A stretch of DNA of 63,847 bases, counting the filler, from Psammoneis japonica (taxonomy: Eukaryota), in assembly GCA_008632985.1 (NCBI GenBank). It is 5 parts of 5 records of this genome, joined end to end, with 100 filler letters (N's around TTAATTAATTAA, not from the genome) between each part and the next. Parts side by side here need not be neighbours in the genome. Positions count along the whole stretch, not along the records: positions 29,475 to 43,586 come from QPGO01000498.1; positions 43,687 to 57,648 come from QPGO01000499.1; positions 57,749 to 63,847 come from QPGO01000597.1; 2 more parts are not named here. One strand, 5' to 3'. Below the pieces are notes generated by a model. The model was given only the letters and a program-made list of their open reading frames with translations, did no database searches and was not told the DNA's origin. Below, in pieces: positions 29,375-62,666 of the stretch. The translations under genes were made by a program, and so were the position numbers. Position 1 is the stretch's first letter. The number at the start of each line of letters is the position of its first letter.

Positions 29375-29474
29375 NNNNNNNNNNNNNNNNNNNNNNNNNN
29401 NNNNNNNNNNNNNNNNNNTTAATTAATTAANNNNNNNNNNNNNNNNNNNNNNNNNNNNNNNNNNNNNNNNNNNN
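29375..29474. other. Assembly gap with linker
   Basis: N44-TTAATTAATTAA-N44. Confidence 0.98.
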
Positions 29475-40962: not shown

Positions 40963-41238
40963 TGACAGAAATTGAAGGCAAATGGCAAGAATTCAAACAA
41001 CAACTCCTTGCTGCTGTCTAAATGGCAGATGAGTCTCCACTCAGAGACCATTGCAGGAGCCGAAAGACGTGCAAGTCGGCATGATTGGGCTGCTGTCATT
41101 GTTCTTGTGAGCCTTGTGGCTCGAAAGCAAACTGCATCGCACGCGAACGCGCGGAACCAAAGCACACAAAACTGTGCGCGGCAAACTAAACAGCACGCGA
41201 CACTTCGCGCGCACCCAAATCCTGCTCAAATCCTGTCA
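40963..41238 (-). repeat. 3' LTR of copia copy C (heavily TpA-mutated)
   Basis: TGACAG...CTGTCA. Aligns end to end with 62394-62666. A purine-rich tract (CTCCCC on + strand) is adjacent at 41239-41244. Confidence 0.93.
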
Positions 41239-43586
41239 CTCCCCAGTTTGCTTGAGGAGTCACAGAAACAGATTCGACTTTGGATGGAATGAAGTTCCAG
41301 AACATGAGGGGGCGGAGAAGGTCCCAGATTTGGGAGCAACCCCAATGCTTGCTGAGAATGTCAGCAGGGTTGCGGGAGCCTTCGATGAAGTGGAACTCAA
41401 GGCAACCAGAGGCAATTGCCTCACGCACACGGTGGAACGACAGTGCGGTGTGTCGTTTGTGCAACTTGGAGTGCGGGATGGTGGCACTGTCTACAACCGA
41501 CTTGTTGTCACCGAACATGCAACTGACATCACGGATCGGGACGCCAAGGCAGCGCAGGGTGATGTGCAGGTCGACAATCTGCTCAACACAAGTCCTTGCG
41601 GCAACAAATTCAGACCCGCAGGTCGCAGTCTCTACAGTGGCTTGCTTCTTAGAGAACCAATCAGTCGGGAATTTGTTGAGGAAGTGGAGCATTCCCATGA
41701 CAGAGCGTCCGGTGAGCATGCAATGGTGCAAGTTTGCATCGACGTAGTGGGTGGCAGCGACACACTTGCCAAGGGGCGGTGGAGCATCCTTCGGGATCAT
41801 CTCTTCTGCCTCGCCATGCACGGAATGCATCCATTCACAGGCCGGAGCAGGGAGATCCAAATGGTCGGGCTCTTCCATGCGAACGCGGAGAGCACCGTGT
41901 CGCATCTTGGAGAGGTGCCCACAGACGCGTTTGGCACGATCCAAGTGGCCTTGACGGGGCGCAGCTCGGAAGCTAGAGAGTGACATGACGGCCGTGGCAA
42001 TGTCAATTCGGCCAAGGGACACTGCCCATTGGAGCGAACCAACAAGAGACTGGAACTTGTGAATGCCATCGGGTCCCAGCAGTTCGGAAGTGTCCAGTTC
42101 GGGGTGGTCACCCTTCTCCAGAGGTGACAGGGCGTTGGTGGCAGGTTTCTCCCCAAACAGTCGGGTGCAGCTGTCGACCATGCGCTCGATGTACTTGCGC
42201 GGAGACAGGCACAAGGTTCCGTCAGGATCCCAGGAAAAATCGCAACCCAGATGGAACTCAATGGGTCCCGCACCCTTGAGCTTGAACTTGTGCTTTTCCG
42301 TGAGAGTGTCGACAAAAGATTGAGGGTCCTTCATGGCAATGGCGAGGTCATCCACATAAACGGCAATGCATTCACAGTGGTCGCCGTTCCTGCGCATCCA
42401 AATGTCGGGTTCGGCACGGCAGGGGAAGAAGCCTTCAGCTCGCAGGCAGTCGGCGAAGCACTTGTGCCAGCGGAGACCGGAGCTGCGCAGTCCATACAGT
42501 GCCTTGTGGATGACAAGGATGTGTCCTTCGAGTTTGCCAAATTTGGGTCCGGCCACAATGTAAAGCTTCTCCTTGGTGGTGGCTTCAAGGCAGGCATTGC
42601 CAATGTCGGTGGCCCATGTCTCTAACTCGTTGAGTTCGGCCAGGAAAATCATCAGCCGAAGGCCACGGAGGGAGACTGCTCCGGAGCAGACACTGTCGAC
42701 AGGTGCGTCTGTGAGGTGCCCATCGGCTACGAGTCGTGCCTTGTGGTGACCGTCGTGTTTCACGTCGCACACCAGGTGCACTCGGATCTTCTTGTGTCCC
42801 ACAGGAGGAGTGGAAGACTCGAAGGGCCCGCAGTCATGGAAGACCTCGTATTCGTCGAGTTGGTCCATCTTGAGATTAGTTGCGTCTCCCCATTTGCGGT
42901 TGCCGTTGCGTTCGTCTAGTGACATGGCGTGTTTGCAGTTCCGGGGAACTTCGCATCCGCACTTGTAGCGAGGTGCAGTGTGGAAGGAGCGAAGCTTGGC
43001 TTGGTTGGCCATGCGAAACAGCTTCTTTTGGCGCCTCACGATGGTGCGGAACTGCTTCCAGCCATCCGTGTCGAGGAGTCCGTTCTCTCGTGCATAGATG
43101 GTGCATGTGACGGGGTTGTCCTTGGCGATGATGGCAAGAGGCTCGGACGTGATCTCCCCACTTTCCCATTCAAGCATGATGTTGTAGCTTGAGCCTTTCC
43201 AGGTTGGGTCGTGAGGCTTCAGAGGTCCTTCGTGTGACACGATGCGTCGAAATTTCCAAACAGCAGTGTCTTCGTCTTCTTGCTCAATGTGATTCATGAT
43301 GTCATTGCAGGCAAGGACTTCCTCGTGTTCGTCGTTGTTGACAGAGCAGACGAACTTGGTGAGCTCGGGATTGCCACTCACTTTCCATTCGTGGTCTTCG
43401 ACGGCCTTGACGATGCGAGCTCTGTGGCGTTGTCCGTCCTCTTGTGGCTGCATGAGGAAGGTACGTCCAATGATGTCTTGCGGATCAAAAACTGGCATCT
43501 TGGGTGTCCTGATCTCCCCATCAGGAGAATCGACGGGGTTGTCGTCATGGTGAGATTTGATGATGGGTTCAGGTGGCTCCCCATCA
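40963..43586 (-). mobile_element. Ty1/copia (CoDi-like) copy C, 3' half (RT-RNaseH-LTR); 5' part lost in gap
   Basis: 770-aa ORF 41186-43498 with YVDD, DIGNA.LEA, YVDANL.HCMLTGRSV, KKQATVETAT.GSEF, FGDNKSVV, NPADILSKHW. Confidence 0.95.
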
Positions 43587-43686
43587 NNNNNNNNNNNNNN
43601 NNNNNNNNNNNNNNNNNNNNNNNNNNNNNNTTAATTAATTAANNNNNNNNNNNNNNNNNNNNNNNNNNNNNNNNNNNNNNNNNNNN
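43587..43686. other. Assembly gap with linker
   Basis: N44-TTAATTAATTAA-N44. Confidence 0.98.
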
Positions 43687-45487
43687 CCAAGTCCAGTGCA
43701 AAAGTCCATCGGCATTGAGATGGCTTGTCCCTGTTCCTGGCCAGGCACCAGCTTGGCATCTGCCCCCACAAAGACTGCCAAACCAATGACCCAATCAGCA
43801 CTTTGCAGCAAAGCTCTGGGCAGCAAAACATTCTTGGCATTGAGAGGAAAGTGCAGCGCAACAAAATGCTCCCAGCGCCGACAGGAAAGTCAGTGCTCAG
43901 ACCTTCGGGATGGACGGGCGGCAAAGTGAGTTACTGCCACCGGCACAGGTGTTGACTGAAGCATTGTGAGGCTCTGATGTCAGCATGCCAACATGATTTT
44001 ACAGTGGGAACACCCTCGCCCTCTGGAACAAGTTCATGGGCAGAAGGAGGACAGTGTGTTCTGTCTTCCCTTCAGTGTTCTTAAATGTGTCTTTGACGCT
44101 CACTTGTGATGTTGGTTGCTTGTTGCCATCCAAATCTGACTTGGAGTGCATCTGCAGGATTGGCTGGAATCTCCACCACAGGAACATGATGAGAGAAGTG
44201 TGCAGTGCAGTTGGCGTCTTGCTTGAGACTTTCTGAGCGTGCATGTTGTGTTGTTGTTGTTGCTGTCACTGCTGCTGTTTGATGAAGCCATGGACAAGCT
44301 TGCATTGTGTTGCCTTTGAGCGACACTCATGAGCCTGTTGCAGCTTCTCCACCTCACCAAGGACCCGTTTCCACCAACCAAATGACTGCAATCAATTGCT
44401 TGCATGAATCAAATCGTTCATGGACAAGCTGAAGCAGTCATCTGTCGTCTCGTTGCACCAACAAAAAGAGACAATCACAGCCATTTCAAGGGGTGCTTGT
44501 GAATGACCAAGGCTGTCACAACACAAAGCAGGACTTTGCTCTTTTGCACTGATCCCAGAGGATGGATGATCATTCTGATTTGACAAGCAGTGCGCATTGT
44601 GTCTGACTCTCTCCATTCGGCAAATTTCGTCTTTCAACAACTCACCTGGAAAAGCCCTTTCAATGATTCCGCCAGCACTGCAAAAAAATCCAGTGCATTC
44701 TAACTTCACTCTCTTCATCTTTTGTGCCATCTTTTGTTTTCTGTTTGCTTGGTGTCTCTCTTGATCTCCCATCACTGCTGTGCAGCGTTTCTCTCTCTCT
44801 CTCTCTCGCCTCTCAAAGGATCGCAAATCTCTCATCTCTCCACCAGTTTCTAATCAACAGCATGTGTGTCCAACTTCAACAGTGGATGTGTGTCATGCAA
44901 GTTACAGCAGAGAACATCACTCGTCACGAGAAGGTGATTGTCCAGCTTTCATCCAGTGATCGTGCCATGTCACGAGCGGCCTGTCAAGCGGGTGTTTTCT
45001 GCTGCTGCAGAAGTCGAGACGACTCACACTCTGGCGGAGCAGCCTTGGACACCTTCAAACCCACGTGGTTGTGAAATGATGATGAACGAGTTTCGTCTCA
45101 TGTGAACGCGTGAGCGTAGCCCCAGTCAAGTCTGGTTTGAATTGACCGCCATGTGCAATTGTCAATTCTTGTGCTGAAGCCGAAATGCGGGAAACAGGCA
45201 CAGACAGATTTGGGATTGTTGATCTATCTATCGCTCGCTCGATGCGTGACGCCAGGAAGGCTCATGACCTCAGAAATCTATCTTCCGCGTGCGTGTTTGG
45301 TACAAATTCTACGTGATCATCAGGAGGGTGACGCAAGCATTCAACAACATCAACAAAAATACCGACAACAACGCAACGAGAAAGGAGAGAACGACTGCTG
45401 AATGAAGCAGAATAGCGAAAGGTACAGCAGAGATAGTAGACTAGAGAATACTACTTCGTGGATCAGTTCAGCGTGTCGAGTCTCAAT

Positions 45488-46951
45488 ATGTGGAAAACCA
45501 GCGTCTTGTTAGTTTCGCTCCTGACGTACAGTCGAGTTCATGAATCGGATGCTTTTGTTGTGCCCTTCACAACTCAGCGTTCATCTTCGTCTCTGTACAT
45601 GAACAAGAAACGATCGTCCAACAAGAAAAAGACCAAGAGGACGCAGCCCAAAGGTGGTTTTGCCAGTGCCTTGAGGGACCTGCAGGTGTCTGCGTTTCGA
45701 TATGCCGGTGATGTTCGACCAGGAAAGCAAACACCGCAGCGAGTTGTGAAAGAGAAAGATATTATGAAACCCGATTATGCAATGGATGGAGTTGTAAGTG
45801 CCGCTTATGGATGTAGCTATGAGTGTTTGAGGGAGAAAACTGACATACTCTATTGTATTATTCTGCGCCTATGTTAGCCGAAAAACAAGGCGAATCTGCT
45901 GCCATGGATTATTGAAGTCAAGACACCGGACGAGATTGAAAAGATGCGCAAGGCTGGCCGTGTCGCACGAGAGGTTTTGGATATCGCTGGACGAGCAGTC
46001 AAGCCCGGTATAACTACAGATGAAATTGATGGTCTTGTGCACAAGGAAACTCTAAAGGTAAAGCGTTATTGGTTTTGTGGGTGGATGCTTGGAGCGCTAT
46101 TGTACATATACACTCACTCTTTCTTTGATTGTCTTAGCGCGGGGCTTATCCATCTCCTTTGAATTACCGCGGTTTTCCTAAATCCTGCTGTACATCCGTC
46201 AATGAAGTCATTTGCCATGGTATTCCGGACGATCGGCCCTTACAAGAGGGAGACGTTATTAATATTGATATTACGTGCTATCTCAATGGCTACCACGGAG
46301 ATTGCTCCGAAATGTTTTACGCAGGAACCGCTGAACCCGATTCAGACACGAAAAAATTGTTGCAAACCACGTATGACTGTTGGGTCAAAGCAATGGATTT
46401 TGTGAGACCTGGCAATGACTATAGGGATATCGGTGCCATTATTGAAGACCATGTGGTGGAGCGGGGGTTTGCGACGGTTCGCAACTTTTGTGGACACGGG
46501 ATTGGATCAGTCTTTCATACCAATCCAAACATTTTCCATTACAGAAATACAGAGCCACAAGGGCAAATGGCTGCGGGACACACCTTTACCATTGAACCCA
46601 TGATCTGTGAAGGATCGGGTGAGTAGAGTTGATGAGATGTGCGTTTGAATGAAGTTGCTTTCGGCTCTGGCTAACTGTTTGCCCTCCCGTGACACAGCCA
46701 AAGCATTGACATGGCCAGACGAATGGACGGCCACCACCATTGATGGGAAGCGGTCGGCACAATTTGAGCACACCCTCTTGGTCACTACGGATGGCGTGGA
46801 GGCTTTGACGGGGAAGATTGAAACATCGCCCATGCAGTTCTGGGAAAAAGAATCGACAGTACACAAGGGCTTTTGGCTTGGAACGACACCGGCAGCAAAG
46901 GAACGCGAAGCAGAATTGCTGAAAGCTTCTCAAGAAAACCGTGTATCGTAG
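45488..46951 (+). CDS. MAP1: Methionine aminopeptidase type 1, probably plastid-targeted; exons 45488-45793, 45878-46057, 46138-46618, 46698-46951
   Basis: [57 protein letters not shown]. Three GT-AG introns keep the frame. Signal peptide ends ..SDA-FVVP. Confidence 0.93.
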
Positions 46952-49249
46952 TGAGCATTAGTGTGCCATACAAGAAATGCCTCGTAGCAACGAATGGTTG
47001 CTTGGCGTCGACAGGACAACCTCGAGGCCGGCGGATGAAGACTTACTTACGAAAATCCTATAAACCTTAAGTCACTCTCGAGCTGTTGTTCAGCTGCTCC
47101 CGAAGAGTCCGTGATTCAGTTCTTTGAATGGGAGGATGCATTATCCGTTGGCAAGGATGGAGGATAGTCAGTCAACACATCATCTGCTATACGGTACAAC
47201 CTTTGAGCTATCGCTGAAGGAATGCCATGTGTCCTCACAGTCAAGCAGTCCCTGCTGGCAGCCCTGGAACTGTTTTTCTTCCTCAACTCAGTCCCTGCAG
47301 CGGCCCATCTCAATTTTCTTCCACTCTCTAGCCAGTAGAGAGAATCCTTCTCGGGGCTTCAAGTAGTGTGTTCGTTAACCGTTGGGGCACGTCAGCGCAC
47401 TATGTTCCAGATTTTTTGTCCCGGTCATTTTTTGTTGATGGCATGGACACTTCTTCCATGGGTGTTTTGCGTGAGATGAGAACCTCCATTTGACGACCAG
47501 GTCTCACAATTTCGTTACAATGCGATTCATGTTTGCGATTGACTTGCTTTTAGCACAAGAAGCCATCCCCAGCAACGCGCAGCAACTGACCCCCGGTGCG
47601 TTCTCAACGCAAATCAAATGACCGAGAAAAAATGAAACTGCAGGAAAAGTGTGGCACAGCATTGTGCATTGGTTCCAACGAATCCAGCGTTGCAGAACGA
47701 CATGAGCCAACCAAAAGAGGACACAGGAGCATCACTGTACGCTCTTGGCATGCCGCATGCTTGAGGACGACTTGTGTCTTAATTTGTGGAGCATCACGAG
47801 CTTTTGCAGGCTGTTGTCATTTTCTTCCGATGACAAAGCACAACACGGTCGGGCACTCCACACCGGCAAAAGCACACAAAGGTTGCTGTCATTCCATCAT
47901 GTTTCGTCATCCACATCCATTGCAGGAGAGCACACCACCACGTCCGAATGCACACATCAAATGATTCCTGGGTTGTTTCCAAACAAGGCGAAATGGATGG
48001 GCTGCTGACTCTGTCCTGCACCATGCTCAGTGAAGCCAACTCGATTCACGTGGCACCCATGGAGCGTGAAAACGGAGTGTGGGATGCCACACACTTTCAT
48101 GCCTTTTGCGTCTTTTCTGTGAAGGACAAGGCATGGTTGTGACACTGGAAGGTGAAAACTTGAGACTTTGCGAATTTCATCATCTGTCTCCAATTTGTTG
48201 CACCGGTGCATGCGATGGGATCTGACATGAGTGTTTCGCCGAAACTTGCACTGTGGCTCTTGCGCAAATTTGATTTCGGAGCCATGGCGCGAGAGTGTGT
48301 GGCAGTTGCACTGTCGCCGCAACCATCCTTTTGTTTGGGCAAAACGCATGTTCATTTTGGTGCATCCGGCAACATCAGCACGGTGACTGTTCTTGGTCGT
48401 TTGCCCTCGGGTTCGGAAGCCGTCGACATGACGTCACCGCAGTTGTCCTTTTTGTTTGGGCAAAACGCGTGGGCAATGTCAGCACGGTGATTCGTCGTCA
48501 TTTGCCCTCGGGTTGGAAGCCGTCGACGTCACGTTGCCCAGCTGCGTTGTTTGGAACGAGATTCTTCTGTTGTTTTGTTGAAACGATTGGCACTCAGTGC
48601 CAACCCAGAATCTTTTCCAATGCACAAAGCGAATGCTCTTCTGGGCCTCGATGACGATGCAGGCATGGGCGCTGTGGATTCTGACTTTGGGGGCGATGGC
48701 AACGACCGAAACTTTAGAGGTTTTGGCGATGACGGTGACGATGCGGGCAATGCGGGCATTCATGCCACTGATCTTTCATGACAGGCCTGTGTTGCTTTGT
48801 CGGAAGAATCGCCGGCGGCACGGGGATGACATCCGCCCACCCTGCACCTTCTGACACAAAACGAGAGGAGGTGCCTGCGAAGGGATCGCAGTGTGAACGG
48901 CAGCAAGACATGCAACAACATTTCATGCTGCAGACGCCATCATGATCACTTGTGCACGGAATTGCATGCAACCCCAATGACCCTGTCAAGCGGGACACAC
49001 GCTCTGGACAAAAAGCACAGCATCTGACAATGTCGATCGTCTCAATGCTGCCGGCGCACACATGCCGCCTCTTGCTGCTCCTGCCGACCCTCGCTTTGCC
49101 CCATCTTGAGATCCTGCATTGACACTTGATTTCAAGCATTCCTTTCATGACAAGAGATGAGAGAAACACAGCTGCATGGGCTTGCAACTCAGAAGGAAAA
49201 AGGTCCAAGGCTTCAGAAAAGGACATTTTGCTCTTGCAAGGCAGAGCAA

Positions 49250-49445
49250 CAGAAGATTTGAAATCACAAAGGGTTGTGCGAAAGCAATTTTCTCCACTGG
49301 CACACAGGCACACATGATGTGTGGTCGCATGGTCAAAAAGGACAACAGATTTGAAAATGTCAGAAAGCAATTTTCTCCGCTGGCACAAAAGCACACATGA
49401 TGTGTGGTCGAATGGTCAAAAAGGACAACAGATTTGAAAATGTCG
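49250..49445. repeat. ~84-bp tandem duplication in TA-poor DNA
   Basis: GAAAGCAATTTTCTCC.CTGGCACA...CACACATGATGTGTGGTCG.ATGGTCAAAAAGGACAACAGATTTGAAAATGTC occurs twice. Confidence 0.75.
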
Positions 49446-50379
49446 GAATGGTGGTCACTCAGAGAGAAGCTCACAAAAGACAGACAAACAACAGAAATCA
49501 AGTGTGACAACCACAATGGCAGACAAAAAGAAAATGACACCAAACATGCCAAACACAAAGAAGAAAAAACCTGACAATGCAGAACAGCAGACATGTTTGT
49601 TGCAGGCCACATGAACAACACACTTGTGCTCTGGTGTGAGAAACCCAAAAAAAAACAAAATGGCAGATCAAATTTTGACCTGGATTGAGAGGCATTTGTG
49701 ACGGCTGACCAGCGGGCCAAACCAAAATGACAAAAGCACCAAGATGCACTGCCCATGCTGTGATCCCATGTGTCAAAGTCAACAAAACAGTGCAGGCATC
49801 ATGTGCAGTTGGCTGGCTTGCACAGATCTCTGGACTCTAGACCAAGCATGACAACTGAAGACCACATGATTTGTGCCAGCACCAGATCAAACAATCTGGC
49901 CAAACTGTGGAAAAAACAGTGCCAAGCACAATGTGCAGACAATTGTGAGAAGCATGCCAGTCAACAGAAATGGGGTTTTCAGCAATGTTGGCTCATGTCA
50001 GGTTGCCTCCATGGATCCCATCACCACACCAATCATCTGCCAAGAACAGCGGGGGGAGCTGGGGCAGCCTCTTCTTGTCATCCATCATCTTTCCATCCAT
50101 CTTCTCCTTTTGCATGCTGCTCCACTGCGTGGTGACTTCTCTGAGAGCTCAGCTGCCCACAAGAGATCATCTTCTTCTGGCATGCTTGGCCTGCTGTCTT
50201 GGCTGCAAAAGCAAATGAGGTGGACTGAAGATGACAGGTGTGATGTGCTGGTGGTTGGAGGTGGCAGACACACCTGTGGACAACAACAGTTTGCAGCTCC
50301 ATGGGCTGAAAAGATGTGCCATGATGTCAAAACACCAAAAGCCACCACAGCAGCAACTTGGCAAGTGCCCCACATGCCG

Positions 50380-50760
50380 CAACTTGCTGACCATGCTGCA
50401 GCTCCTTCCGGCTTTGCATTCAAAAATTCTGGAATGTTTCAGATTTAGAGCCCTCCCAAGAATGCTGCTGAGACCTTCTCCAGAAGAACACCGGGAGAGC
50501 CTTGTCTGCAAGTCAATGAAACTCTCCAACAATGCTTTGTTTGCTGTTGGAGGAAGAGCATTTCAAGAGCAACAACTTGCTGACCATGCTGCAGCTCCTT
50601 CTGGCTCTGCGTTGAAAAATCCTGGAATGTTTCAGATTTGGAGCCCTCCAAAGAATGCTGCCAAGACCTGCTCCCAGAAGGATGTTGGGGCCTTGTCTGC
50701 AAGTCAATGAAATTTTCCAACATCTTGTTTGCTGTTGGAGGAAGAACATTTCAAGAGTGC
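50380..50760. repeat. ~190-bp tandem duplication in TA-poor DNA
   Basis: CAACTTGCTGACCATGCTGCAGCTCCTTC..GGAATGTTTCAGATTT..GCAAGTCAATGAAA..TTTGCTGTTGGAGGAAGA occurs twice. Confidence 0.75.
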
Positions 50761-51963
50761 TCTTGCAGAGCAAGCTCAGTGCAAATCCAAGTGCAAACAC
50801 AAGAAGAATCATGCAAGTGTGGCTGATGGAACAAAGCCATGTTGCTTTCAATCCTTTCTCCAACTCTTGTGCTGTGAAAAACTTTTTTGGTGCAAAGTTC
50901 TCTGCTCAAGAAATCCCAGCCCTCCTTCTTGACCTTTTAGACAGGCTCAGCTGTCCTGGACTCAGGCGCAGGATGGAAGCTGTTGTTGCAGAATGTGCAG
51001 TCACAGAAGAGAGCATGATTGACTTGTTTCACCATGTGGAGTGCAAGTGCTGTGTTGTGCTGTGCTCAAGAATGATGCTCTCAAGTGCACTGGACACAAG
51101 CTTGACCCCAATCTCCTCGAGAGGATTTGTTGACCACGGATCTGGTCATGCAACAGCTGCAGACTTTGTCTCTGTGGACAATCAAATCCTCAAGGATTTG
51201 TTGACCATGGATCTGGTCATGCAAGATGCTCAGCTTGTCAGCTGCAGACTTTGTCTCTGTGGACAATCAAATGCCAACTGTCAGCAGCATTTCCTGGAAA
51301 GTTGTGGCTTTCTGCCACAAGCAGTGCAATTTTGGCAAAGATTGGCGGTGATTTCAACCTGGCAACAGGCTGATGAGTGGCATTTGAAGCTTCGGATGTG
51401 CAGCTCTTACATTGGTCAAATGGCACTGACAAGGGCTTGACGAACACGTGCATGCGTGTTTGGGGGCGGGGGGGGGGGGGGGGGCTCCGAGGCAGGTCAA
51501 AATAACAACAAGTGTGGGAAATGCGAGCTGTTGTTACCGCAGCACGTAGATCCATCCTTTACGCACGGAACTGAAGTACCGAATGCTTCTTTTACGCCGA
51601 GTTGGCTCATAAATAGCAGCAGCAGTAGTAGTGGACATTGTAGTTGTCGTGAATTGTGACAGTAGAGTGTGCCTTAAGCTTTCAAGTACGACTTTTCCTC
51701 TCTCACATCGCCATTGCTACCGGTAGTATGTGGCAGTTAGAGAGGAAGATTTTTACAACTGGATACAGCCAACCAGTGTCATCTGCCTGTCACACGCAAC
51801 TCTGCTAAGACATGCTGTTTAAAAACATAACGCTCCTCACGACACCTGCAGAGTGATCAAACAAGGCAGCGATGACGACGCAGCACGACTCTCTCGCTAC
51901 CAATTCGACAGGACTGGTCCCACGTCAAAACACCATGCCAACTCTCAACGGGAGTAGCGCGCT

Positions 51964-53643
51964 CTAGTCTGTTACTCGACTAACTATTGGATCGCATCCC
52001 TTTACGTCTTTGACGGCAAAGCCTAGTTCGGTAATTCTCGCTCGCAAAGAATCCGCCAGCTCCCAGTCTTTGGCCTCTTTGGCGGCTGTCCTCTGTTCCA
52101 CCAAGTCTAGTACTTGGTCGGGTACTACGGTCTTTGCCTCTAATTCCTCTTGCTCCTTTTCTGTTAAAGGAACTTGATAAAAGATACCAAAAACCTTATC
52201 CATTTGGTCCATGGCGTCGTGGACGGCTTTCAAGCCAACCAAATCCAAAGGAGGCACGTCACCCTCGTCTTTTGCTTTCTTGACACGTTTGAATTCATTC
52301 TCGGCAGCCTTGACACAGGCAAAGAGAGATGCTGCTGCTCGTGGCATACTCAAATCATCCACCAATGCGGCTTCAAAATTGTCAATCTGTGCACGAACCA
52401 CCTTGTAGGCAATCTCGCTGTCCTTTGCATTCATACTGCATGAATCCTCTTGCACCGTCTCCTTCAATGCGTCTGCAATTTCATTTCGAATCTTGTCCAT
52501 TCGCTTGAGTGCTCCCTTGGCGGCACTCATGGCCTTTGGAGTGAAACTGAGCGGATTCCTGTACTGTGAGCTTACCACCAAGTAACGATAAGCACGGACT
52601 TCGTTTGGTTTGGGACACGCCGCTCGCAAAGTCAGAAAGTTGCCGAGACTCTTCGACATTTTCTCGTCATTAATATTGACAAAGCCATTATGGACCCAGC
52701 AATTACAAAAGACCTTGTCGGTGGCTCCCTCAGATTGAGCGATTTCGTTCTCGTGATGGGGAAAGGTCAAATCCACTCCGCCGCAATGCACGTCAATAGT
52801 GTCACCCAAGTACTTTCGAGCCATAGCGGAACATTCCAGATGCCATCCTGGCCGTCCCTTTCCCAACTCCTTACTATCCCACGTGGCATCTTGCTCCAAA
52901 TCAATACCGGGCTTATAGGCTTTCCATAAACAAAAGTCAAAGGCACCGCGCTTGTCTTGTTCTGTATTTCGCTCAGACGCTTCCATTTCGTCAAAGTTGA
53001 GTTGCACCAATTGTTGTCCATAGCCCTCTTTTTTGTCTACTGCAAAATACCACGATCCCTCATCAGTTTGATAGGCAAGTCCCTTGTCCCTCAGCATGAG
53101 TACCAACTCGACCATTTCATCAATGTGTTCTGTTGCACGGGGGTACTTGGACGCCCGGATAATGTTGAGCGCGTCCAAATCATCCATAAAGGCTTGTTCA
53201 TATTTTCTCGTAATGGTATAAAGATCCGTATTCGTATCCTGACATTTTTTAATAATCTTGTCATCCACGTCGGTTAGGTTGCAAATGTGCTCTACCGAGT
53301 ATCCCAGATACAGCAAGACTCGTTTGAGTACATCATAGGTCAGGAATGCACGAAAGTTTCCAACGTGCGCACTGTCGTAGACGGTCGGACCACACGTGTA
53401 CATACTGACTTTATTCTTTTCAAGAGTTTGAAAGGGCTCTTTTTGACGTGTTTTTGTATTGTAGAGGATCAAATCGTCTTGCGAAATGGCGTGGAGTGAA
53501 GATGAAGATGTTTTGATGCGGCGTCGTTGTTGTTGTATTCCTCCGTTTCTTTGAAAAGGTATGCAATTAGTGGGTGACCACGCATTGATGGGAGAGTCAC
53601 TACAGATAACGAAAAAAACAGCAATAAGGGAATAGCGTGCCAT
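51964..53643 (-). CDS. cysS: Cysteinyl-tRNA synthetase, organelle-targeted (start 53643 or 53700)
   Basis: MYTCGPTVYD.AHVGN, DF.LWK, GRPGWHLECSAM, D.H.GG.DL.FPHHENEIAQS, KMSKSLGN. N-terminal signal ..INA-WSP. Single intact ORF. Confidence 0.95.
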   Translation of the reverse strand: MARYSLIAVFFVICSDSPINAWSPTNCIPFQRNGGIQQQRRRIKTSSSSLHAISQDDLILYNTKTRQKEPFQTLEKNKVSMYTCGPTVYDSAHVGNFRAFLTYDVLKRVLLYLGYSVEHICNLTDVDDKIIKKCQDTNTDLYTITRKYEQAFMDDLDALNIIRASKYPRATEHIDEMVELVLMLRDKGLAYQTDEGSWYFAVDKKEGYGQQLVQLNFDEMEASERNTEQDKRGAFDFCLWKAYKPGIDLEQDATWDSKELGKGRPGWHLECSAMARKYLGDTIDVHCGGVDLTFPHHENEIAQSEGATDKVFCNCWVHNGFVNINDEKMSKSLGNFLTLRAACPKPNEVRAYRYLVVSSQYRNPLSFTPKAMSAAKGALKRMDKIRNEIADALKETVQEDSCSMNAKDSEIAYKVVRAQIDNFEAALVDDLSMPRAAASLFACVKAAENEFKRVKKAKDEGDVPPLDLVGLKAVHDAMDQMDKVFGIFYQVPLTEKEQEELEAKTVVPDQVLDLVEQRTAAKEAKDWELADSLRARITELGFAVKDVKGCDPIVSRVTD

Positions 53644-54321
53644 GGTGAATATCGCGAAGCTTTTCAAAAGGATGGTTTGTGTTTGGAGGGAAATGGCCAT
53701 GGTCGGGTTCGGTAGGTGTCGGCGGGTCGGAGGTCGGAGGGAAGAATACAACACACGTCAGTCAATTCGCGCGACTTGCGCGCATTTGGCACGGTAACGC
53801 ATCGACAGCCAGGCAACATCGTCACCCATTCCACAGCCGCACTGACTGATAGACATATTTTTATTGAAAATTTATTTACAATCGTGTATGAATAGCCCAT
53901 ATATTGTACATTATTCAGCGCTTTATATTCGAGGATAATCGGTCTTTTTTCAACATTCACACTGTCCACTCGCAGCCAAAGACAACCGGTCGGCACTTGT
54001 TCGTTGTGCGCCTCTCCAAACGCCGTGTTTTTGTCTCTATTGATATCATTTTGAGGTGAGCAACAAAAGCGACGTTTGAATGTAACGCATCGGTTGATGG
54101 ACTGCGCTGTGTATCGAGAGCAACTTTAACAGAGACCAACGCTGCTTGGTTGTGTGATTGCGTGATGCTACGTAGAGCACAGTACACTTTCTACGCCGGC
54201 CGTGGATACGCGATGCTTTTTTCTTGTCAATCATACCGTTTCTGACTTCGCTGCTCTCTGCTCTGTCTCTCTTTTGCATGACAGAAACATAACGCAGCAC
54301 TACTGCTAAACATCAAGAACA

Positions 54322-57117
54322 ATGCCCAAAGATGGTGGTCATGGTCCGGGCGGAGCGGCTGGCTCCGACTCTCGCTTCTTTACGACGCAGAAAAAGGCGA
54401 GATGCACGAGCTCCGGTTGGAATTGCACTCGACAGACCGCAACACCAAGGTGGACGCTGTAAAGAAAGTAATTGCCAGCATGACGGTCGGCAAGGACGTA
54501 TCTATGCTGTTTACCGATGTGTTGAACTGCGTTCAAACAGGAAATATCGAATTGAAAAAGCTCGTGTACCTGTACTTGATCAATTATGCCAAGAGCCAAC
54601 CGGAACTAACGCTGTTGGCTGTAAACACCTTTGTGAAGGACGCCAACGATCCCAATCCGCTTATTCGAGCACTTGCCGTCCGTACTATGGGCTGTATTCG
54701 TGTCGATCGCATTACGGAGTATCTCTGCGAACCTCTCTCGCGTGCTTTGCGAGATGACGATCCCTATGTCCGCAAGACAGCTGCTGTTTGTGTTGCCAAG
54801 TTGTACGACATTGCTCCGGCGCTGGTGCAAGAACGAGGCTTTTTAGAAGTGTTGCATGATTTGATTTCCGATTCCAATCCATCCGTAGTGGCCAATGGCG
54901 TGGCGGCTCTTTCGGAAATTGCCGAAACGTCTGGACGGGATGTCATGAAGATTTCGGCCAGTGTCTTGCAGAAGCTATTGGCCGCACTCAACGAGTGTAC
55001 CGAGTGGGGACAAGTTTTTATTTTGGATTCGCTCGCCAAGTACACTCCTACGGATGGACGAGAAGCTGAGGGAATTATCGAACGAGTCACTCCGCGACTG
55101 CAGCATGCCAATTCGGCGGTTGTGATGAGTGCTGTCAAAGTTATTCTCAGCTACATGGAGTACATGGGAAACCAAAACTCGGACGCGGTTCGCAACCTGA
55201 CACGCAAACTCGCTCCACCGCTTGTTACGCTTTTGAATAGCGAGCCGGAAGTTCAGTACGTGGCACTCCGAAACATTAACCTAATTGTGCAGAAGCGTCC
55301 CAGCATTTTGGAGAACGAGATCAAGGTCTTCTTCTGCAAGTACAATGACCCGATCTACGTCAAGATGGAAAAGCTTGAGATTATTATTAAACTCGTTTCC
55401 GAAAAGAATATCGATCAAGTCCTTTTGGAACTCAAGGAGTACGCCACCGAGGTTGATGTTGACTTTGTCCGCAAGTCGGTCTCGGCTATTGGACGGTGCG
55501 CCGTCAAGTTGGAACGCGCCGCGGAACGGTGCATTGGCGTCTTGCTTGAACTCATTCAAACCAAGGTCAACTATGTGGTGCAGGAATCCGTTATTGTCAT
55601 TAAGGACATTTTCCGTCGTTACCCCAATCGGTATGAAAGCATAATTGCCACTCTCTGTGATAATCTTGACACGCTCGACGAACCACTTGCCAAGGCGAGT
55701 ATGATTTGGATTATTGGAGAATACGCAGAGCGGATTGACAATGCCGATGAGTTGCTCGATACCTTTTTGGAAACCTTTGAAGAAGAAGACCCCGCAGTGC
55801 AGCTGCAACTACTGACGGCAACCGTCAAGTGCTTTTTGAAAAACCCCGAAGATACCCAAGACATGGTACAGCGCGTTTTGGATATGGCCACGGAGGAATC
55901 GGACAATCCAGACCTAAGAGATCGTGGCTTTATCTACTGGCGATTGCTCAGTACGGATCCGGAAGCAGCCAAAATGGTGGTGCTTGGCGACAAGCCCGTT
56001 ATTGAGGATGACACCTTTCGGCTGGAACCGGCGCTGCTTAACGCGCTCATTGGACAGATTGCCACTCTCAGTTCGGTATATCACAAGCCACCTGAAGCCT
56101 TTGTGGTGCGTGGGCACGCGGGACGGGGTGTCGAAGAGGAGGCTTACGAAGAAGAAGACGAGGAGGAAGATGTGGAGTATGAAGGAGAGAATGATGTAGA
56201 CGATGGTGAAGACGGACAGGTGGATTTGCTAGATATGGGAGGACTCGCTGTGACGGACGACCGATCGGCGCCAGATGCTTTTGGAGTTGTGGTACGTGCT
56301 GCTCCATATGTTGCTGTTATAATTTTGTCACTGTTGTCTTCTTACCCCTTTACATTTTTTCCGCGCTCTACTGCTTTAGTCCAAGCCCATCATGCACCAG
56401 GTTTGTACTCCCGACAAGTCTGGCGGCATTGAAATCCTTGCTGGCTTCCATCAAATCAACTCGGCAATCAAGATGGAAATGGAATTTCGCAACGTCTCTT
56501 CCGAGACGCCCGTATCTAACTTGGCTATTCAGTTGAACAAGAACGCGTTTGGGTTGAGCCCTGCAAGTCAGCAGATTATGTTGAACCCGCACGTTCCACA
56601 TGGTTCGTCGGGAGCGGCCCAAGTAGAGCTTGTCGTGACTCCCGCTATGCTGGCACCTGTTGCTGCCGGACAGCAAGCGTCTCCACAGATTCAAGTTGCC
56701 ATTAAGAACATGGCCACGAGCAACGTCTTTTACTTTGCCGCCAACTTTGCATTAGAGGCACTCTTTAGCCCAGACGGTGCCCTGGATCGATCCGCCTTTA
56801 TCGAAGCGTGGAAGTCGATTGACGACCAAAAGGAAATGTACAGCACCGTGACCGACTTGCCCACGACGGATATTGAAGAGGTCCAAGCCAAATTCAAGAC
56901 TAACAATGTCTTTTTTATTGCCCGTCGTCCCGTACCGAACGCCGAGGGACAGGAGGTTGTCTACTTTTCCATGCGTACCGTGACTGCGATGCAATTCTTG
57001 GCGGAACTCACATTTAAAGAGGGTGTGAATGCTTGCAAAATTTGTCTCAAGACGGAGGCTGCACCCTATGCCACCATGGCCAAGACCGCCTTGGAGAATC
57101 TGCTTCGTGCTCCGTAA
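54322..57117 (+). CDS. AP-1/AP-2 complex beta-adaptin; intron 56292-56379; apparent 1-nt homopolymer frameshift near 54395
   Basis: [10 protein letters not shown](G)[56 protein letters not shown]-terminal appendage domain. Intron GTACGT...TTTAG is in frame. Confidence 0.93.
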
Positions 57118-57648
57118 GGTGTTGTCGATGTTGAGTTGATGGGCGCAGTCGAGTAGCTGAACGCGGTAGTAGCGATGTTTTCTAGTGTGTTCCTGTTGTC
57201 TGTATGGCATGATTATCTTTCTAGTCTTTTGCTGTTGTCTGTACATAATGATATGAAAACAGCGCCACGGTGGAATGCTACAAGCAATAATTGTAGTCCA
57301 GTGTACTCGTGCTGCATTCGTTTTCGCGACTCTGTTCTCTCTCTACTCTACTGTAGAGTGGAGAAACGCGCACTGTTTCATTGGTGGCATGCGCGATCTT
57401 CTGGCACGTCTGGAACTGGACTGGAAACGCAAGGATTGAGCCAGTGAGGGTGGGTGAAGACAAGTGGACAAATCGGCATGGAAATCATTGCCCAGACAGC
57501 CAAATGTGTCAACATTCAACATGAAGACATTGAACACAACAATTTCAGTGACAATTTTGAAAATGTTCCCATGAGTGAAAACATCTGTGGCAATGATCAA
57601 GTGCAGGTGCTTGGATTTGCACAAAAAGCACCCAGACAGTCATGGCTG

Positions 57649-57748
57649 NNNNNNNNNNNNNNNNNNNNNNNNNNNNNNNNNNNNNNNNNNNNTTAATTAA
57701 TTAANNNNNNNNNNNNNNNNNNNNNNNNNNNNNNNNNNNNNNNNNNNN
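57649..57748. other. Assembly gap with linker
   Basis: N44-TTAATTAATTAA-N44. Confidence 0.98.
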
Positions 57749-60700
57749 TGGCAAGAGGCTCGGACGTGATCTCCCCACTTTCCCATTCAAGCATGATGTT
57801 GTAGCTTGAGCCTTTCCAGGTTGGGTCGTGAGGCTTCAGAGGTCCTTCGTGTGACACGATGCGTCGAAATTTCCAAAGTGGTGTCTTCGTCTTCTTGCTC
57901 AATGTGATTCATGATGTCATTGCAGGCAAGGACTTCCTCGTATTCGTCATTGTTGACAGAGCAGACGAACTTAGTGAGCTCGGGATTGCCGTTCACTTTC
58001 CATTCGTGGTCTTCGACGGCCTTGACGATGCGAGCTCTGTGGCGTTGTCCGTCCTCTTGTGGCTGCATGAGGAAGGTACGTCCAATGATGTCTTGCGGAT
58101 CGAAAACTGGCATCTTGGGTGTCCTGATCTCCCCATCAGGAGAATCGACGGGGTTGTCGTCATGGCGAGATTTGATGATGGGTTCAGGTGGCTCCCCATC
58201 AGGAGGATCAAGACGCAGGTTTCGAACGGCAGGATCGGGGGTAGCGGAGCGAACGTTGGACCGGCAGAGGATCTTCTGAGTCTCGTCAGATAGAATCTTG
58301 AAGGTCATCTGGTGGCCGACGTGCTCAGCAATGCCAACGAAGCGTCCACGCAACTCACGGGATTCGGACGGCCAATCGGAGTCATCGAGGTGGAAGTGCA
58401 CTGGTTCCCACCAGTGAAAGCGAAGCAATGGGCTGATGTCCGGGGTGGATCCAGTGAGAGTCTCGAGGGGCGTGCGCCAGTGGAGACGTGGGGACGCTGT
58501 GTGGTTGAGTGAAGCACACGCACATGAGCGCCAGCAGCCATGTGTGGGCGGGCGAACCAAAACGGTCCATGACAGTGTTCGCCATGCGCTTCACGGTCTG
58601 GTGTCGACGCTCGGCAAAGTTTTGGTGTTGCTGGTGAGGCTCACTTTGCCAGCTGGAGATGAAGAGGGCGCGTAGGATCCCGAGCACTTTGTTGCTGATC
58701 TCAACTTGAGCACGGTCGCTAATGAGTTTGGATGGGGCACCACGTTCACGGATCTGATCCTCGAGTGTGTTGACAAACTCTTTGTCCGTCTTAGTGCCGT
58801 AGACGTCAGTGACGGTAGACTCGGTGCCAACAAACAGTTGGGCGCTGGTGCAACCAGAGTCGACGGCCGGGGTGTCGGCACAAACGGTGTCAGTGGCGAC
58901 AGGCTCGTTGCGGCGGTGCACATTAAGGGCGGGGTTGGGTGATTTGCAGGCCTTGCGAAGGTGTGTACCGGCGGGCATGCGGGCGCACTGCGTGGTGCAG
59001 TCAAAAGTACGACGGACCGCATCGGCAGGTAGGAAGCCAAAGCAAGGCCGAAGAGACTCGAAGGGGGGGTCCTTGGGCTGTACAGTGCGCTCCGGAGGTG
59101 GAACGTCATCGCCCTGGGGGTCAATCGCATGCAGATGACACTCGTAGAACACGTCGTCGTTCGGAATGAGGTGATCATCGAGGGCGGACGCGTGATCGGC
59201 AGACAAGGAAGCGGACAAGATGGTCTCGTTGACAACGACACGGTGACGGCAGTTGCCGCATTCGTCAAATGGGTTGGCAGTGGGATCGTCCTGCAGGTCA
59301 GAGATCGCGTCGCACCACTGGTCGTCGTCAGTGACAGAGTGATCGAGGACGGAAGGGTCCCATGTGTCATCACCGGTGAGGATGACATGGGGCAGGGTGT
59401 CCCATTCGGCGTCAGTGTAAGGTCGCATGGCAACATGAGGCAGGCCAGCCTTGATGTCAATGGGGATGACATAGCCATCAGGAGTGGCAATGCGTTGCAA
59501 GCCGTTGGGCACCTTGACAGAGCGATCGTTGACATCCTGTTTGTACCATTCGAGCTGGCCGCAGGAATGGATGGTCTTGCCCTTTCCCGTGCATGCGCAC
59601 TGATGGAGGATGGCGATGACGGGACCACGCTGGGTCTCAATGACGGCACCAGCGGTGACAATGGGGATGTCCACCAATTGATGATCGTCAATGCCCTGAA
59701 CGTCGACTTGGCGAGAGGTGCGTGCAATGACGCGAACGTCGTCGCCAGCAATGCCGCCGTTGGCCCCACGATCGACTAGAGCGCCAGTGCGTGTGGAGCG
59801 ATGAGCAGAGGCAGAGCAAATGACATTGTGGTTGTCAACGCGGCGGCAAGTGCGGCCGTTAAGTTCATGTCATCTGCAGAAGCTGGCGGGGTAGAGGAAG
59901 CGGCGGATGGCCCCGGTCGACTGGCATTGGGGGCTTGGTTAGGAGACAACAGACGTTGCAGATCACCGGGTGGCAGTGGCTTGCGCTTGGTGAGGTGCGC
60001 CAGGATGGGATCCGAAGTGGCGTCCACATGTGAGCGGAGTCACCACAGTCAGCAGGAGTCGTGTTGGACAAGTTGACATCACCGTCACTCCCAAGGTGTT
60101 GGTCGTGAAGGTTGGCCGTAACAGACTCATGGCAGTTGCTGGCTCGCGGGTTGCGGGGAGGCGGACGAGAATGCTCAAGGATGATCGCCTTGGAGGAATC
60201 GGGCAACGAATCCCAGAGCCGTTGGTGGTCGGGAGGGAGACGTCTCCATTGGACACCGGTGAGGCTGGGACCGCGGGTGCAGGCAGCATTGGCTTGAAGG
60301 ACGTCAACGTCGCTGTCAATGTCGTAGAACACATCGTCGGACGGTTCCTCGGAGCAGACGTCGTGTGCGTGTGGCGCGTCGGGGAGCTCGAGGTGTCGTC
60401 TTGGGTTGAAACGTGCTGTCGCACTGAGCTGCCGCGGAGAGGAGCAAGCCACAGCATTGATCGCATGTGAGGCTCTTGCCACTCTGCGTACGATGCTGAT
60501 CAGCTTGGTTCTTGACAGCACGGAGTTCCTCGACAGGGTGCACGGCATTCTCGAGCATGACGCGCTTCTGTCCTTCAGAGAAGTGGTCACTGGCGGGATG
60601 AGTGCCTCGCACTTGCGCAACTGATCTTGCCAATGAAGGATGAACCCGTGGGTCGGACCTTTCCAAGTGCCATCACCAAGACGCGCGGTGGTGAGGTGCG

Positions 60701-62666
60701 TGAGCAGGGTGGAGGACTCGACAGATGCGCGGGTGGAGGCAAGCGCGCACTCAGACAAGGAGCGGCAGACGGTCTGTGCGTCAGAAGACCCCACATTTTC
60801 GCGAATGAGAGCCTTGCCCTTGTCGGTGAGAAGGATGCGTTCGAAGACGGCGAACATGTGCTTTTGCTGTTCAGCAAAGAGCAGTTTGTCTTCGGGGCTG
60901 GTCGGTTTGTACGACGAGTCTAGAATGCACTCGACGTCTTGGGCACGGGCTTGTGCCACAAGTGAGGTGTGCCAAGTGTGCCACTGCTTGTCGGATTTGA
61001 GAGCCGTGAAAGCGGTGGGATCACGCTTGATGCCTCGCTTGAAGTCCCGCACCGGGTCGCGTGCCTTGGTCGGGTTGGTGACATGTGGAGGTGCAAGGGG
61101 TGAGCTGCCGATGGACACAGAAGACATGCAGTCGGGGCTGAGGCGGCAGGCAAGGAACTCGTCATGCGTGAACAAAGAGGAGTCGTTGGCAACGTCAAGA
61201 CCTTTGTGTGCTTTGACAATGTACAGACTGACTAGTGCTGCTAACATGTTCTTATAACCACGGGGCAAAGGGATTACATTAGTGCCGTTGTCGCACTCAA
61301 GCGAGTCGATTTGGGACGGCATGAACGTGAACAGTTCCTGATGCGAGTCCGTGCCGTCTTGGGCCAAAGCCAAACGAAGAGGACTCCCAGCACCTTGGGC
61401 AAGCACGGTTCCAACAACGTGCTCGAAACCATCGGTTTGTTGCTGACGAGTGAGAACCATGGCAGACAAAAGTGGTGTCAGGACAATCAATTCTGGTTGG
61501 GAAGCGAAGGTAGACTCGAAACTTGGGTGAGAATAGACTTGACTTGAAATGGACTTGACTTGAAATCTTGAACTATCTTAAAATCAGAAGTCGCCGGGCT
61601 TTGTCATCCCGTTCGTTGTCAAGTGCTAAACTTCCCATCCGGTCCGTAGAGTTGTGCCGGCACGTCCGAACCCGCAGCTGGCGGCGCTTTGGGTTGCTTG
61701 CGAGCGGAGCAGCGGGTTGTAAACCCCTGCAGGCAAGCTGACTAGAGGTGGACAAGACCCCCGAACCGTTCTTATTTTATGTCGGTTGGATTTCCCGATC
61801 AGGCTGGCCAGTTGACGCAGGCGTCAGGCGCTGTGGACGAACGAACAAACGCGGGAAAGCACCCTCGCCCCAACGCAGGCTGCAATCACGGCTGCTTGCT
61901 CTCACAGTCGTCCTCGTGGACCTAGTAGAACTGTAGAGCACCAGCAGTCCGGGGTAGATCAGGTACAATGGACTCGGTGTGCTTGTAGAGTGGCAGCAAA
62001 ACCGCAGTCCGAAGAGTGGGTACAGGTTCTTGGCCGTGAAGATGTGTATATATATATATGTCTTCAGCGACGAAGATCCTTGAATGTGTAGGGTTCTTGA
62101 CCGTTAACCGATGAATGGTATATCAAGGGATGGATCAAGGATAGACTTGGATATGACCGTTGAATATGTCTTCAGCGACCGAAGGTAGTATAATCAATCC
62201 AGATATCCAGCGGTAAGGAGACTTGACGGTGACGTTAACTTCCTGCCGATGCCCTGGTATTGAATGCGCGTAGACTTGCCGATGTATGTAGAATAATACG
62301 GAGGTCCACGTAGAATTGAAATAGCGTCGTTGGTAAATCAACGACGACGATGGCGGTTGCTCAATGGGTTGACAATGAGCAAGACTGTTAATCTGACAGA
62401 AAATGAAGGCAAATGGCAAGAATTCAAACAATAACTCCTTACTGCTGTCTAAATAGCAGATGAGTCTCGCTCAGAGACCTTACAGGAGCGAGAGACGTGT
62501 AAGTCGGTATAATCGGGCTACTGTTATTATTCTTGTGAGCCTTGTGGCTCGAAAGCAAACTACATCGCGCGTGAACGCGCGGAACTAAAGCACACAAAAC
62601 TGTGCGCGGTAAACTAAACAGCGCGCGATACTTCGCGCGCATCCAAATCCTGTTCAAATCCTGTCA
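57749..62666 (-). mobile_element. Ty1/copia (CoDi-like) copy B, 5' half (LTR-PBS-leader-gag-protease-integrase); 3' part lost in gap
   Basis: gag 61490-59865 (FKRGIKRD), ALVDRGANGG, integrase SDRAQVE..QNFAERR. Frameshifted. Homologous to copy A and overlaps copy C by ~450 nt. Confidence 0.95.
62394..62666 (-). repeat. 5' LTR of copia copy B (TpA intact)
   Basis: TGACAG...CTGTCA; PBS at 62377-62393. Confidence 0.93.

Follow-up and report, generated by a model that had tools for sequence, protein, structure and literature searches.

The stretch of DNA from the diatom Psammoneis japonica analyzed here (63,847 nucleotides of assembly GCA_008632985.1, hereafter the window) contains long blocks from which the dinucleotide TpA (TA) is almost entirely missing, and these very probably reflect a regional mutational process that turns TpA into CpA or TpG in double-stranded genomic DNA and acts on non-genic or silenced units. 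The feature is real, and the core of the original inference holds; after the organism in which this kind of hypermutation was first reported, in 2026, the diatom is its second lineage and shows it in by far the most extreme form. The window consists of five pieces (1-14931, 15032-29374, 29475-43586, 43687-57648 and 57749-63847), which we read as separate draft contigs placed end to end, and all compositional results given below describe this window only. Six TA-poor blocks were pooled (1-9000, 15032-17000, 29475-38400, 43687-45000, 47600-51450 and 62700-63847; 26,208 bp, 41% of the window) and compared with a genic set of 15.6 kb. The observed/expected ratio (O/E) of TA is 0.06 in the pooled blocks (110 observed, 1758 expected) as against 0.57 in the genic set. 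CA and TG are raised to 1.74 and 1.82, the genic values being 1.17 and 1.19; CG is reduced to 0.27 (genic 1.03), and the remaining 12 dinucleotides lie between 0.89 and 1.19 in the blocks and between 0.84 and 1.16 in the genic set. The deficits of TA (1648) and CG (1115) are nearly equal, taken together, to the excesses of CA (1280) and TG (1257), with GC contents of 0.482 and 0.484 in blocks and genic set, respectively. Several 500-bp windows contain no TA at all. The TA-poor regions and the recognizable features within them are:

1-9000: relic block, poor in TA and CpG (TA O/E 0.03-0.12 and CpG O/E 0.12-0.27 per kb)
3650-4255, plus strand: faint Ty3/Gypsy reverse-transcriptase remnant (RVT_1 at E 4.9e-4 and RT_RNaseH_2 at E 3.3e-3; neither reaches its Pfam cut-off)
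15032-17000: TA-poor block of no recognizable homology (TA O/E 0.0-0.14 per 500 bp; no Pfam match for its open reading frames)
20500-25500: TA-poor block containing an XPG-like pseudogene
20538-22721, plus strand: the XPG-family (5'-3' exonuclease-like) pseudogene, with XPG_N and XPG_I domains
29475-38400: largest TA-free, CpG-poor block (TA O/E 0.00-0.25 per 500 bp; no TA in 34001-35000)
43687-45000: TA-poor block (TA O/E 0.03-0.09 over 44001-45000; 0.21 in the window that starts at 43501 and runs across a linker)
47600-51450: TA-free block (TA O/E 0.00-0.04), CpG still normal in its first 1.4 kb
62668-63847: TA-free, CpG-free, tandemly repeated flank that hosts Copia copy Y (TA O/E 0.07, CpG O/E 0.06)

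The process can be followed in a family of Copia retrotransposons, of which self-BLAST delimits three incomplete copies, here called X, Y and Z, with their long terminal repeats (LTRs):

9184-14929, plus strand: Copia copy X, ending at the contig end (self-BLAST; RVT_2, E 2.3e-25)
9184-9407, plus strand: 5' LTR of copy X (self-BLAST)
57749-62667, minus strand: Copia copy Y, starting at the contig start (self-BLAST), with its 5' LTR at 62394-62667
40963-43586, minus strand: Copia copy Z, stopping at the contig end (RVT_2, E 2e-26), with the hypermutated 3' LTR at 40963-41239

The LTRs of copies Z (40963-41239) and Y (62394-62667) are 91.6% identical over 274 aligned columns. Fourteen of the 16 TA of LTR Y differ in LTR Z, where seven read CA and seven TG, and the opposite case never occurs; the two TA common to both LTRs stand in a CTAA context. 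These changes make up 14 of the 23 mismatches. Broken down by context, T and C are exchanged before A at 7 of 27 YA sites, and A and G after T at 7 of 25 TR sites (Y, pyrimidine; R, purine). Outside pyrimidine-purine (YpR) steps the corresponding counts are 1/21 (YC), 1/27 (YT), 1/49 (AR) and 0/25 (GR), and in CpG contexts 2/34 (YG) and 3/37 (CR). The TpA contexts thus show 14 changes in 52 sites as compared with 3 in 122 for the other contexts (Fisher p=3.6e-6), and rough per-site divergences are 2.08 (TpA), 0.27 (CpG) and 0.025 (remaining transition contexts), so that TpA changed at roughly 8 times the rate of CpG and 80 times that of other transitions. Along the LTR, ordering the CA and TG changes by eye revealed no runs. 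Our recount reproduces the 14 of 16 altered TpA, seven of each kind, from which this study started, and the context rates bear out the enrichment of A>G and T>C at TpA that the original prediction had claimed. It had also reported few changed CpG, which is correct, although the figure of 4 in 20 becomes 5 in 21. Its description of the two LTRs as sisters does not hold: they lie on different contigs, the 455-bp internal overlap of copies Y and Z at the contig ends is only 97.6% identical by blastn (98.0% in a MAFFT alignment), and the five bases flanking each LTR, compared by eye, differ, and they are therefore not the two ends of one insertion. LTR 40963 is the 3' LTR of one copy and LTR 62394 the 5' LTR of another.

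Depletion varies within and between the copies. LTR Y contains 16 TA for 18.8 expected (0.85), LTR Z 2 for 15.6 (0.13), and the interior of copy Z stands at 0.16; its translation contains 1.1% Tyr, 5.3% His and 3.5% Cys. Copy X has TA O/E values of 0.55 (9184-10500), 0.19 (10501-13077) and 0.37 (13652-14929), and copy Y 0.84 in its 5' part (61501-62667) and 0.21 in its interior (57749-61500), where CpG is at 0.97. The earlier statement that transposable-element and pseudogene blocks are nearly devoid of TA while genes are normal thus stands for the pooled blocks (0.06 versus 0.57) and fails for 61501-62667 and 9184-10500. Block edges are sharp and some of them match the ends of elements: TA density rises at 9186, LTR X starting at 9184; the last TA of the right-hand end is at 62629, inside LTR Y, which ends at 62667; and TA density falls at the start of the pseudogene (20538). 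Copy X is interrupted by a piece of about 570 bp (13078-13651) that is CpG-rich, has a TA O/E of 0.81 and is without counterpart in Y or Z; this piece may be a later insertion.

An alignment of two copies cannot by itself separate a change from TA to CA or TG from the reverse, CA to TA, as in repeat-induced point mutation (RIP), and outgroups are needed. We therefore aligned 150 representative outgroup Copia proteins to the window by tblastn and retained columns covered by at least 8 outgroups with at least 60% agreement. Copies X, Y and Z together offer 39 conserved Tyr columns, of which 13 still have TAY, 19 have CAY or TGY (His 8, Cys 11) and 7 have something else. Conversely, 17 of 19 conserved His columns are kept and none has become Tyr; for His and Cys columns together the change to Tyr is found in 0 of 20 (Fisher p=6.6e-5 for the polarity test). 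Trp is kept in 20 of 22 columns, no TAG or TAA occurs at the Trp columns or at 14 Gln columns, and of all 778 conserved columns, whatever the residue, 653 are unchanged, compared with 13 of 39 for Tyr. A check by MAFFT with 36 of the 150 outgroups gives for the 16 Tyr columns of copy Z six Tyr, five Cys, three His and two others. Separate events in X and Z can be recognized where the consensus NAYLEA has become NACLEA in Z and NAHLEA in X.

The XPG-like pseudogene gives the same picture outside mobile DNA. It is full-length and colinear with two homologues of 655-658 residues (P0271 and P0272; 48% and 46% identity), and its frame contains two in-frame TGA. Its Tyr content is 0.3%, that of the homologues 4.0%. 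The 19 columns with Tyr in both homologues read His in 7 cases, Cys in 7, Tyr in 1 and other residues in 4, whereas no His or Cys column out of 21 has turned into Tyr (p=5e-7). The third LTR, that of copy X, has the state of the TA copy at 9 of the 14 variable sites of the LTR pair and that of the CA/TG copy at 3, while one site differs from both and one is deleted, as read from the alignment; at a single site each of the three copies has a different dinucleotide (TA, CA and TG). Among 80 related Copia loci from metagenomes the TA O/E of the whole locus ranges from 0.02 to 1.15 with a median of about 0.66, and only 13 of 1540 500-bp windows fall below 0.2, 10 of them in a single locus. The 120 nearest database proteins have a median Tyr content of 4.3%, none being below 1.5%. 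As judged from the protein outgroups, the third LTR and the normal TA content of the 80 related elements, TA is the ancestral state and the change runs from TA to CA or TG, which agrees with the direction proposed originally, opposite to that of RIP.

The process is regional and not genome-wide, again as had been proposed. At NNT|A codon junctions a change of T to C is always synonymous, and a uniform bias strong enough to bring neutral DNA down to 0.06 would erase TA at these junctions and in gene flanks. Pooled over seven intact open reading frames, TA at the 3|1 junctions is nonetheless present at 121 of 205.5 expected (0.59), the values within codons being 0.50 and 0.49, and non-coding gene flanks have TA O/E values of 0.62-0.94.

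Both strands are affected, which corroborates the strand symmetry deduced originally from the seven CA and seven TG of the LTR pair: the blocks contain 3013 CA and 2796 TG in total, Tyr has become Cys 11 times and His 8 times in Copia, and 7 times each in the pseudogene. CA and TG are distributed less evenly per 500 bp in the blocks (chi2 96.7 with 48 degrees of freedom) than in the genes (39.5 with 27), which ancestral coding-strand composition could explain. The flanking bases matter as well. Expressed as TA/(TA+CA+TG), the share of surviving TA in the blocks is 62/1433 (4.3%) in YTAR contexts, 44/3136 (1.4%) in mixed ones and 4/1347 (0.3%) in RTAY (p=8.5e-16); among the 110 survivors TTAA is the most spared context (28) and ATAT is not represented at all. 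This suggests that the mutator prefers, on each strand, TA followed by a pyrimidine (TAY). Finally, TpA may be lost where CpG is not: the interior of copy Y combines a TA O/E of 0.21 with a CpG O/E of 0.97, and 48001-49000, in the block 47600-51450, combines 0.0 with 0.9, CpG falling to 0.07-0.15 farther along this block. The TpA process is thus separate from CpG decay and faster.

As to the targets, Copia and the faint Gypsy remnant are mobile elements, the pseudogene is affected as well, and most of the block sequence is without a Pfam match: of 137 stop-to-stop open reading frames of the TA-poor blocks, 130 have none at E<=0.01. Two of the others are informative, one with the weak RVT_1/RT_RNaseH_2 match and one with XPG; the five remaining frames have weak single matches that look like chance.

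That the TA-free DNA exists as assembled is indicated by contigs rebuilt by Logan from sequencing run X1, which match positions 29475-40988 without a single difference, the longest piece measuring 2812 bp. The word depth in X1 is about 32 over the TA-free block, equal to that of the neighbouring gene, and most of this block of the third contig is at single-copy depth; runs X2 and X3 cover only small parts of the stretch and are not informative on it. The Copia family, on the other hand, is hugely abundant in X1 (5356 contigs on the stretch, with summed word depths of 75,000-240,000 compared with about 32 for single-copy sequence). In a listing of 40 of the 120 differences from paralogous contigs, the window has CA or TG where the paralogue has CG in 19 cases and TA in 12; the reverse for TA is seen in 2 and the remaining 7 are of other kinds. 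The Copia element of a metagenomic contig unrelated to the window (L067) has 61% protein identity to copy Z; positions 1-2766 contain 3 TA in 2766 bp, the translation has 1 Tyr in 769 residues and CVDD replaces the motif YVDD; on these sequence features L067 is an independent case of the same TA erasure. Two Copia fragments from ENA metagenome assemblies (P0183 and P0204) contain 0.0% Tyr with raised His and Cys, and probably represent hypermutated copies mistaken for genes. A metagenome scan with a single Copia protein recovered no relative.

We propose that the process is aimed at particular regions and strikes either strand with equal chance. It affects LTR retrotransposons and their relics, tandem repeats and one pseudogene or more, and spares live genes together with their flanks; given time nearly all TpA is lost, and the TpA that stands between a 5' pyrimidine and a 3' purine goes last. 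Direction, TpA specificity, strand symmetry, regional restriction, flank preference and speed relative to CpG decay are shown by the sequence; the chemistry is conjectural. Chemically, adenine in 5'-TA-3', best in 5'-TAY-3', would be converted to hypoxanthine, which would be read as G, by a deaminase, TadA/ADAT-like or other, that would be recruited to silent chromatin or foreign DNA. Such enzymatic adenine deamination is a serious candidate for the chemistry, held with slightly more doubt than belief. The tRNA adenosine deaminases TadA and ADAT2/3 are known to meet U33-A34 in every case, and the native site of E. coli TadA is UAC, which would suit the TAY preference. We infer that the process may serve genome defence and that it could be the same system as the TpA hypermutation of the chlorarachniophyte Bigelowiella natans, discussed below. 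The fullest version of the proposal, a diatom genome-defence pathway that deaminates duplex adenine at 5'-TA(Y)-3' in silenced or foreign units and is homologous to, or convergent with, that of B. natans, is put forward more tentatively still.

Several observations weigh against a regional process of this kind or against its proposed chemistry. In both X and Y the 5' LTR and the next 1.1-1.3 kb retain TA (0.55 and 0.84) while the interiors are depleted (0.19 and 0.21), for which a simple model of whole-element targeting does not account. LTR X, used as outgroup, joins the CA/TG copy at 3 of 14 sites. The Copia copies are related, and X and Z may owe some of their Tyr losses to common descent. 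The sequencing runs that cover the block come from one sample of one study, may be the assembly's own source and do not represent an independent platform. No deaminase was found among the open reading frames of the window scanned with Pfam, nor were TET/JBP or Y-family polymerase domains. Lastly, A>G on one strand and T>C on the other leave one and the same footprint.

This last point opens the way to a lesion on thymine rather than adenine: if T at TpA were modified (to 5-hydroxymethyluracil or a base-J-like product of a TET/JBP-type enzyme), its mispairing with G or its faulty repair would give T>C and leave the same trace. 5-Hydroxymethyluracil occurs in dinoflagellate DNA preferentially at TpA and TpC, which counts for this explanation, but the blocks do not show the accompanying depletion of TC (O/E 1.04, compared with 1.08 in genes), none of the analyses gave a sign of such a base in diatoms, and we regard a thymine lesion as unlikely. 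Editing of the retrotransposon before integration, be it A-to-I editing of its RNA by an ADAR-like enzyme or deamination of single-stranded cDNA, has in its favour that the best polarized cases include retrotransposons. Nevertheless, both strands are changed relative to transcription, as the 11 Tyr>Cys and 8 Tyr>His changes of Copia show, which speaks against editing of sense RNA or of minus-strand cDNA; non-retroelement DNA, namely the XPG-like pseudogene and 9-kb blocks without retroelement features, is equally erased. ADARs prefer a 3' G, and the survival of TA in TAA and TAG contexts argues against them on this count too. Even with the preference of ADARs for U upstream of the edited A, mentioned in the accessible part of a recent preprint (bioRxiv 10.64898/2026.01.13.699255), we give such editing very little credence.

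An untargeted explanation, in which a genome-wide bias from TpA to CpA or TpG is countered in genes by selection alone, would draw on the low TA of the genes themselves (0.57), their mild excess of CA and TG and the CA value of 1.45 at the 3|1 codon junction. It is nonetheless highly improbable: TA at NNT|A junctions is no lower than within codons, gene flanks keep theirs, and young LTRs inserted in TA-free DNA retain 0.85. The polarity itself might have been misread, LTR 62394 being the copy mutated from CpA to TpA as in RIP and 40963 the unmutated one, since two sequences alone leave the direction undetermined and RIP can hit the same sites in several copies, which weakens the vote of the third LTR. 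All polarity tests oppose this, to the point of refuting it for the Copia copies and the pseudogene; moreover, the transposable-element blocks are nearly without TA, the opposite of RIP, and the Trp and Gln columns are free of TAG and TAA, so that a reversed direction is scarcely conceivable. Equally hard to credit is an artefact of sequencing or assembly, or a base modification misread at TpA. The covering data are of a single platform and may be those of the assembly, but independently built contigs match the TA-free block without a difference at gene-level depth, if a modified A were misread as G on the strand that carries it, reads from the two strands would be in conflict at every site, and the unrelated contig L067 is in the same state. 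A regional process in genomic DNA is the preferred reading.

Two further candidates were tried and set aside. Error-prone synthesis of the Pol-eta type has WA>WG changes as its mark, WA being the motif of this polymerase, and had been among the mechanisms suggested at the outset; it does not fit because AA is not depleted (O/E 1.19 in blocks, 1.14 in genes), and copy Z keeps 8 of 8 conserved Asn columns in both alignments. GC-biased gene conversion, already discarded in the original prediction, would turn AT into GC whatever the context and raise the GC content; it fares no better here, only TA being lost (AT 0.92, AA and TT 1.19 and 1.18) at an unchanged GC content.

It had been stated that no system of this kind was described. 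This is no longer the case, as the same signature is reported in a preprint on mutation-accumulation lines of B. natans, in which integrated DNA of nucleocytoplasmic large DNA viruses (NCLDV) and virophages undergoes TpA hypermutation (Mettrop et al., bioRxiv 10.64898/2026.01.13.699255). According to the available part of this text, two integrated viral regions accumulated 231 mutations, of which 230 were A>G or T>C, all of them at TpA, with a rate of ~6e-7 per site per generation that was found in some lines only, de novo events in culture amounting to about 1e-7 to 1e-6 per site per generation. The long-term trace described there is a depletion of TpA with a gain of CpA and TpG, and coding sequences depleted in TpA are enriched for reverse transcriptase and DDE domains. 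An ADAT2-like adenine deaminase is put forward as the enzyme as a proposal only, and diatoms are not mentioned in the available text. Literature searches together with the accessible part of PMC2806351 gave no report of TpA-directed mutation in diatoms.

As far as the available text allows comparison, the two cases share A>G/T>C changes at TpA, with TpG or CpA as the product depending on the strand, and the confinement of these changes to particular regions. They differ in their hosts, a diatom (stramenopile) here and a chlorarachniophyte (Rhizaria) there, and in their targets, which are Copia, relics of transposable elements, tandem repeats and a pseudogene in the window but giant-virus inserts in B. 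natans. Depletion is far deeper in the window (0.06 over 26 kb, compared with a Rho of 0.45 for the NCLDV region), whereas mutation was observed in real time in B. natans and is known here from the sequence alone. CpG decay and the sparing of YTAR flanks are features of the window that were not met in the accessible portion of the preprint.

RIP of ascomycete fungi is comparable in being a hypermutation by transitions at particular dinucleotides, destructive to mobile elements and gene duplicates, from which sharp-edged blocks of strong dinucleotide skew result. RIP, as described in the accessible part of PMC2621366, consists of C>T changes, mostly CpA>TpA. It enriches TA and lowers GC, whereas in the window TA is erased (0.06 in the blocks) and GC is unchanged; both the direction and the base are opposite. 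As for the duplication that triggers RIP before meiosis, the Copia family of the window is very abundant, and the TA-free block is for the most part at single-copy depth. Decay of 5-methylcytosine at CpG also acts on a self-complementary YpR step, gives CA or TG and co-occurs in the older blocks (CpG 0.27), but it cannot remove TpA, and the two processes are separable here. LTR retrotransposons of Phaeodactylum tricornutum are CpG-methylated, as far as the consulted part of PMC2806351 states, which fits the CpG decay seen in the window. In animals, ADAR (A>I) and APOBEC (C>U) offer examples of deaminase-driven hypermutation of mobile and viral sequence that becomes fixed in genomes; their substrates are RNA or single-stranded cDNA, and the trace in retro-copies is biased to one strand, whereas both strands and also non-retroelement DNA are changed here.

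To our knowledge, the targeted systems of hypermutation of eukaryotic mobile DNA known before the 2026 preprint all deaminated cytosine (RIP, APOBEC and 5-methylcytosine decay). An AT>GC footprint at TpA is now found in a diatom, in which it is almost complete over many kilobases; diatoms are ecologically dominant, and some species are genetically tractable. A second lineage allows comparative searches for the enzyme among the genes common to lineages bearing the signature, and the traits observed (TAY favoured, YTAR spared, AA untouched, both strands changed, faster than CpG decay) provide a fingerprint against which candidate deaminases may be held. If the proposal is true, an inverse form of RIP would be old and widespread in algae of the SAR group (stramenopiles, alveolates and Rhizaria) and would shape much of their non-coding DNA, the blocks being 41% of this window, and a natural adenine editor of double-stranded DNA could follow.

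The erasure also has consequences for annotation. The loss of TAA and TAG leaves TGA as nearly the sole stop codon, and long spurious open reading frames arise in TA-free DNA; they reach 520 residues without a family match (for example 15274-16836 and 23829-25103) and are a trap for gene callers. TA-free, Tyr-free reading frames in diatom or metagenome data correspond to decayed elements rather than genes. Tandem repeats are found inside the TA-poor blocks at 22740-23103 (unit of about 182 bp), 50380-50776 (193 bp) and 62704-63840 (a longer nested array).

The five pieces of the window are joined by linkers, and features on either side of a linker are therefore without physical linkage. The four complete pieces measure 14931, 14343, 14112 and 13962 bp, which suggests draft contigs strung together by decreasing size. 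The linkers and the live genes that served as controls or were recognized by Pfam are:

14932-15031, 29375-29474, 43587-43686 and 57649-57748: linkers, all four identical (44 N, TTAATTAATTAA, 44 N)
51500-57400: control region of live genes (Pfam), TA O/E 0.45-0.86, CpG O/E ~1
51964-53757, minus strand: cysteinyl-tRNA synthetase (CysRS), live gene (Pfam)
54282-57114, plus strand: AP-1 beta adaptin, live gene (Pfam)
18947-20359: S9 peptidase, live gene (Pfam)
27543-28571, minus strand: ankyrin protein, live gene (Pfam)
26059-26763: DnaJ protein, live gene (Pfam)
~45878-46623: M24 peptidase, live gene (Pfam)

The open reading frame 54282-56432 of AP-1 beta adaptin is 87-95% identical to proteins with named diatom sources.

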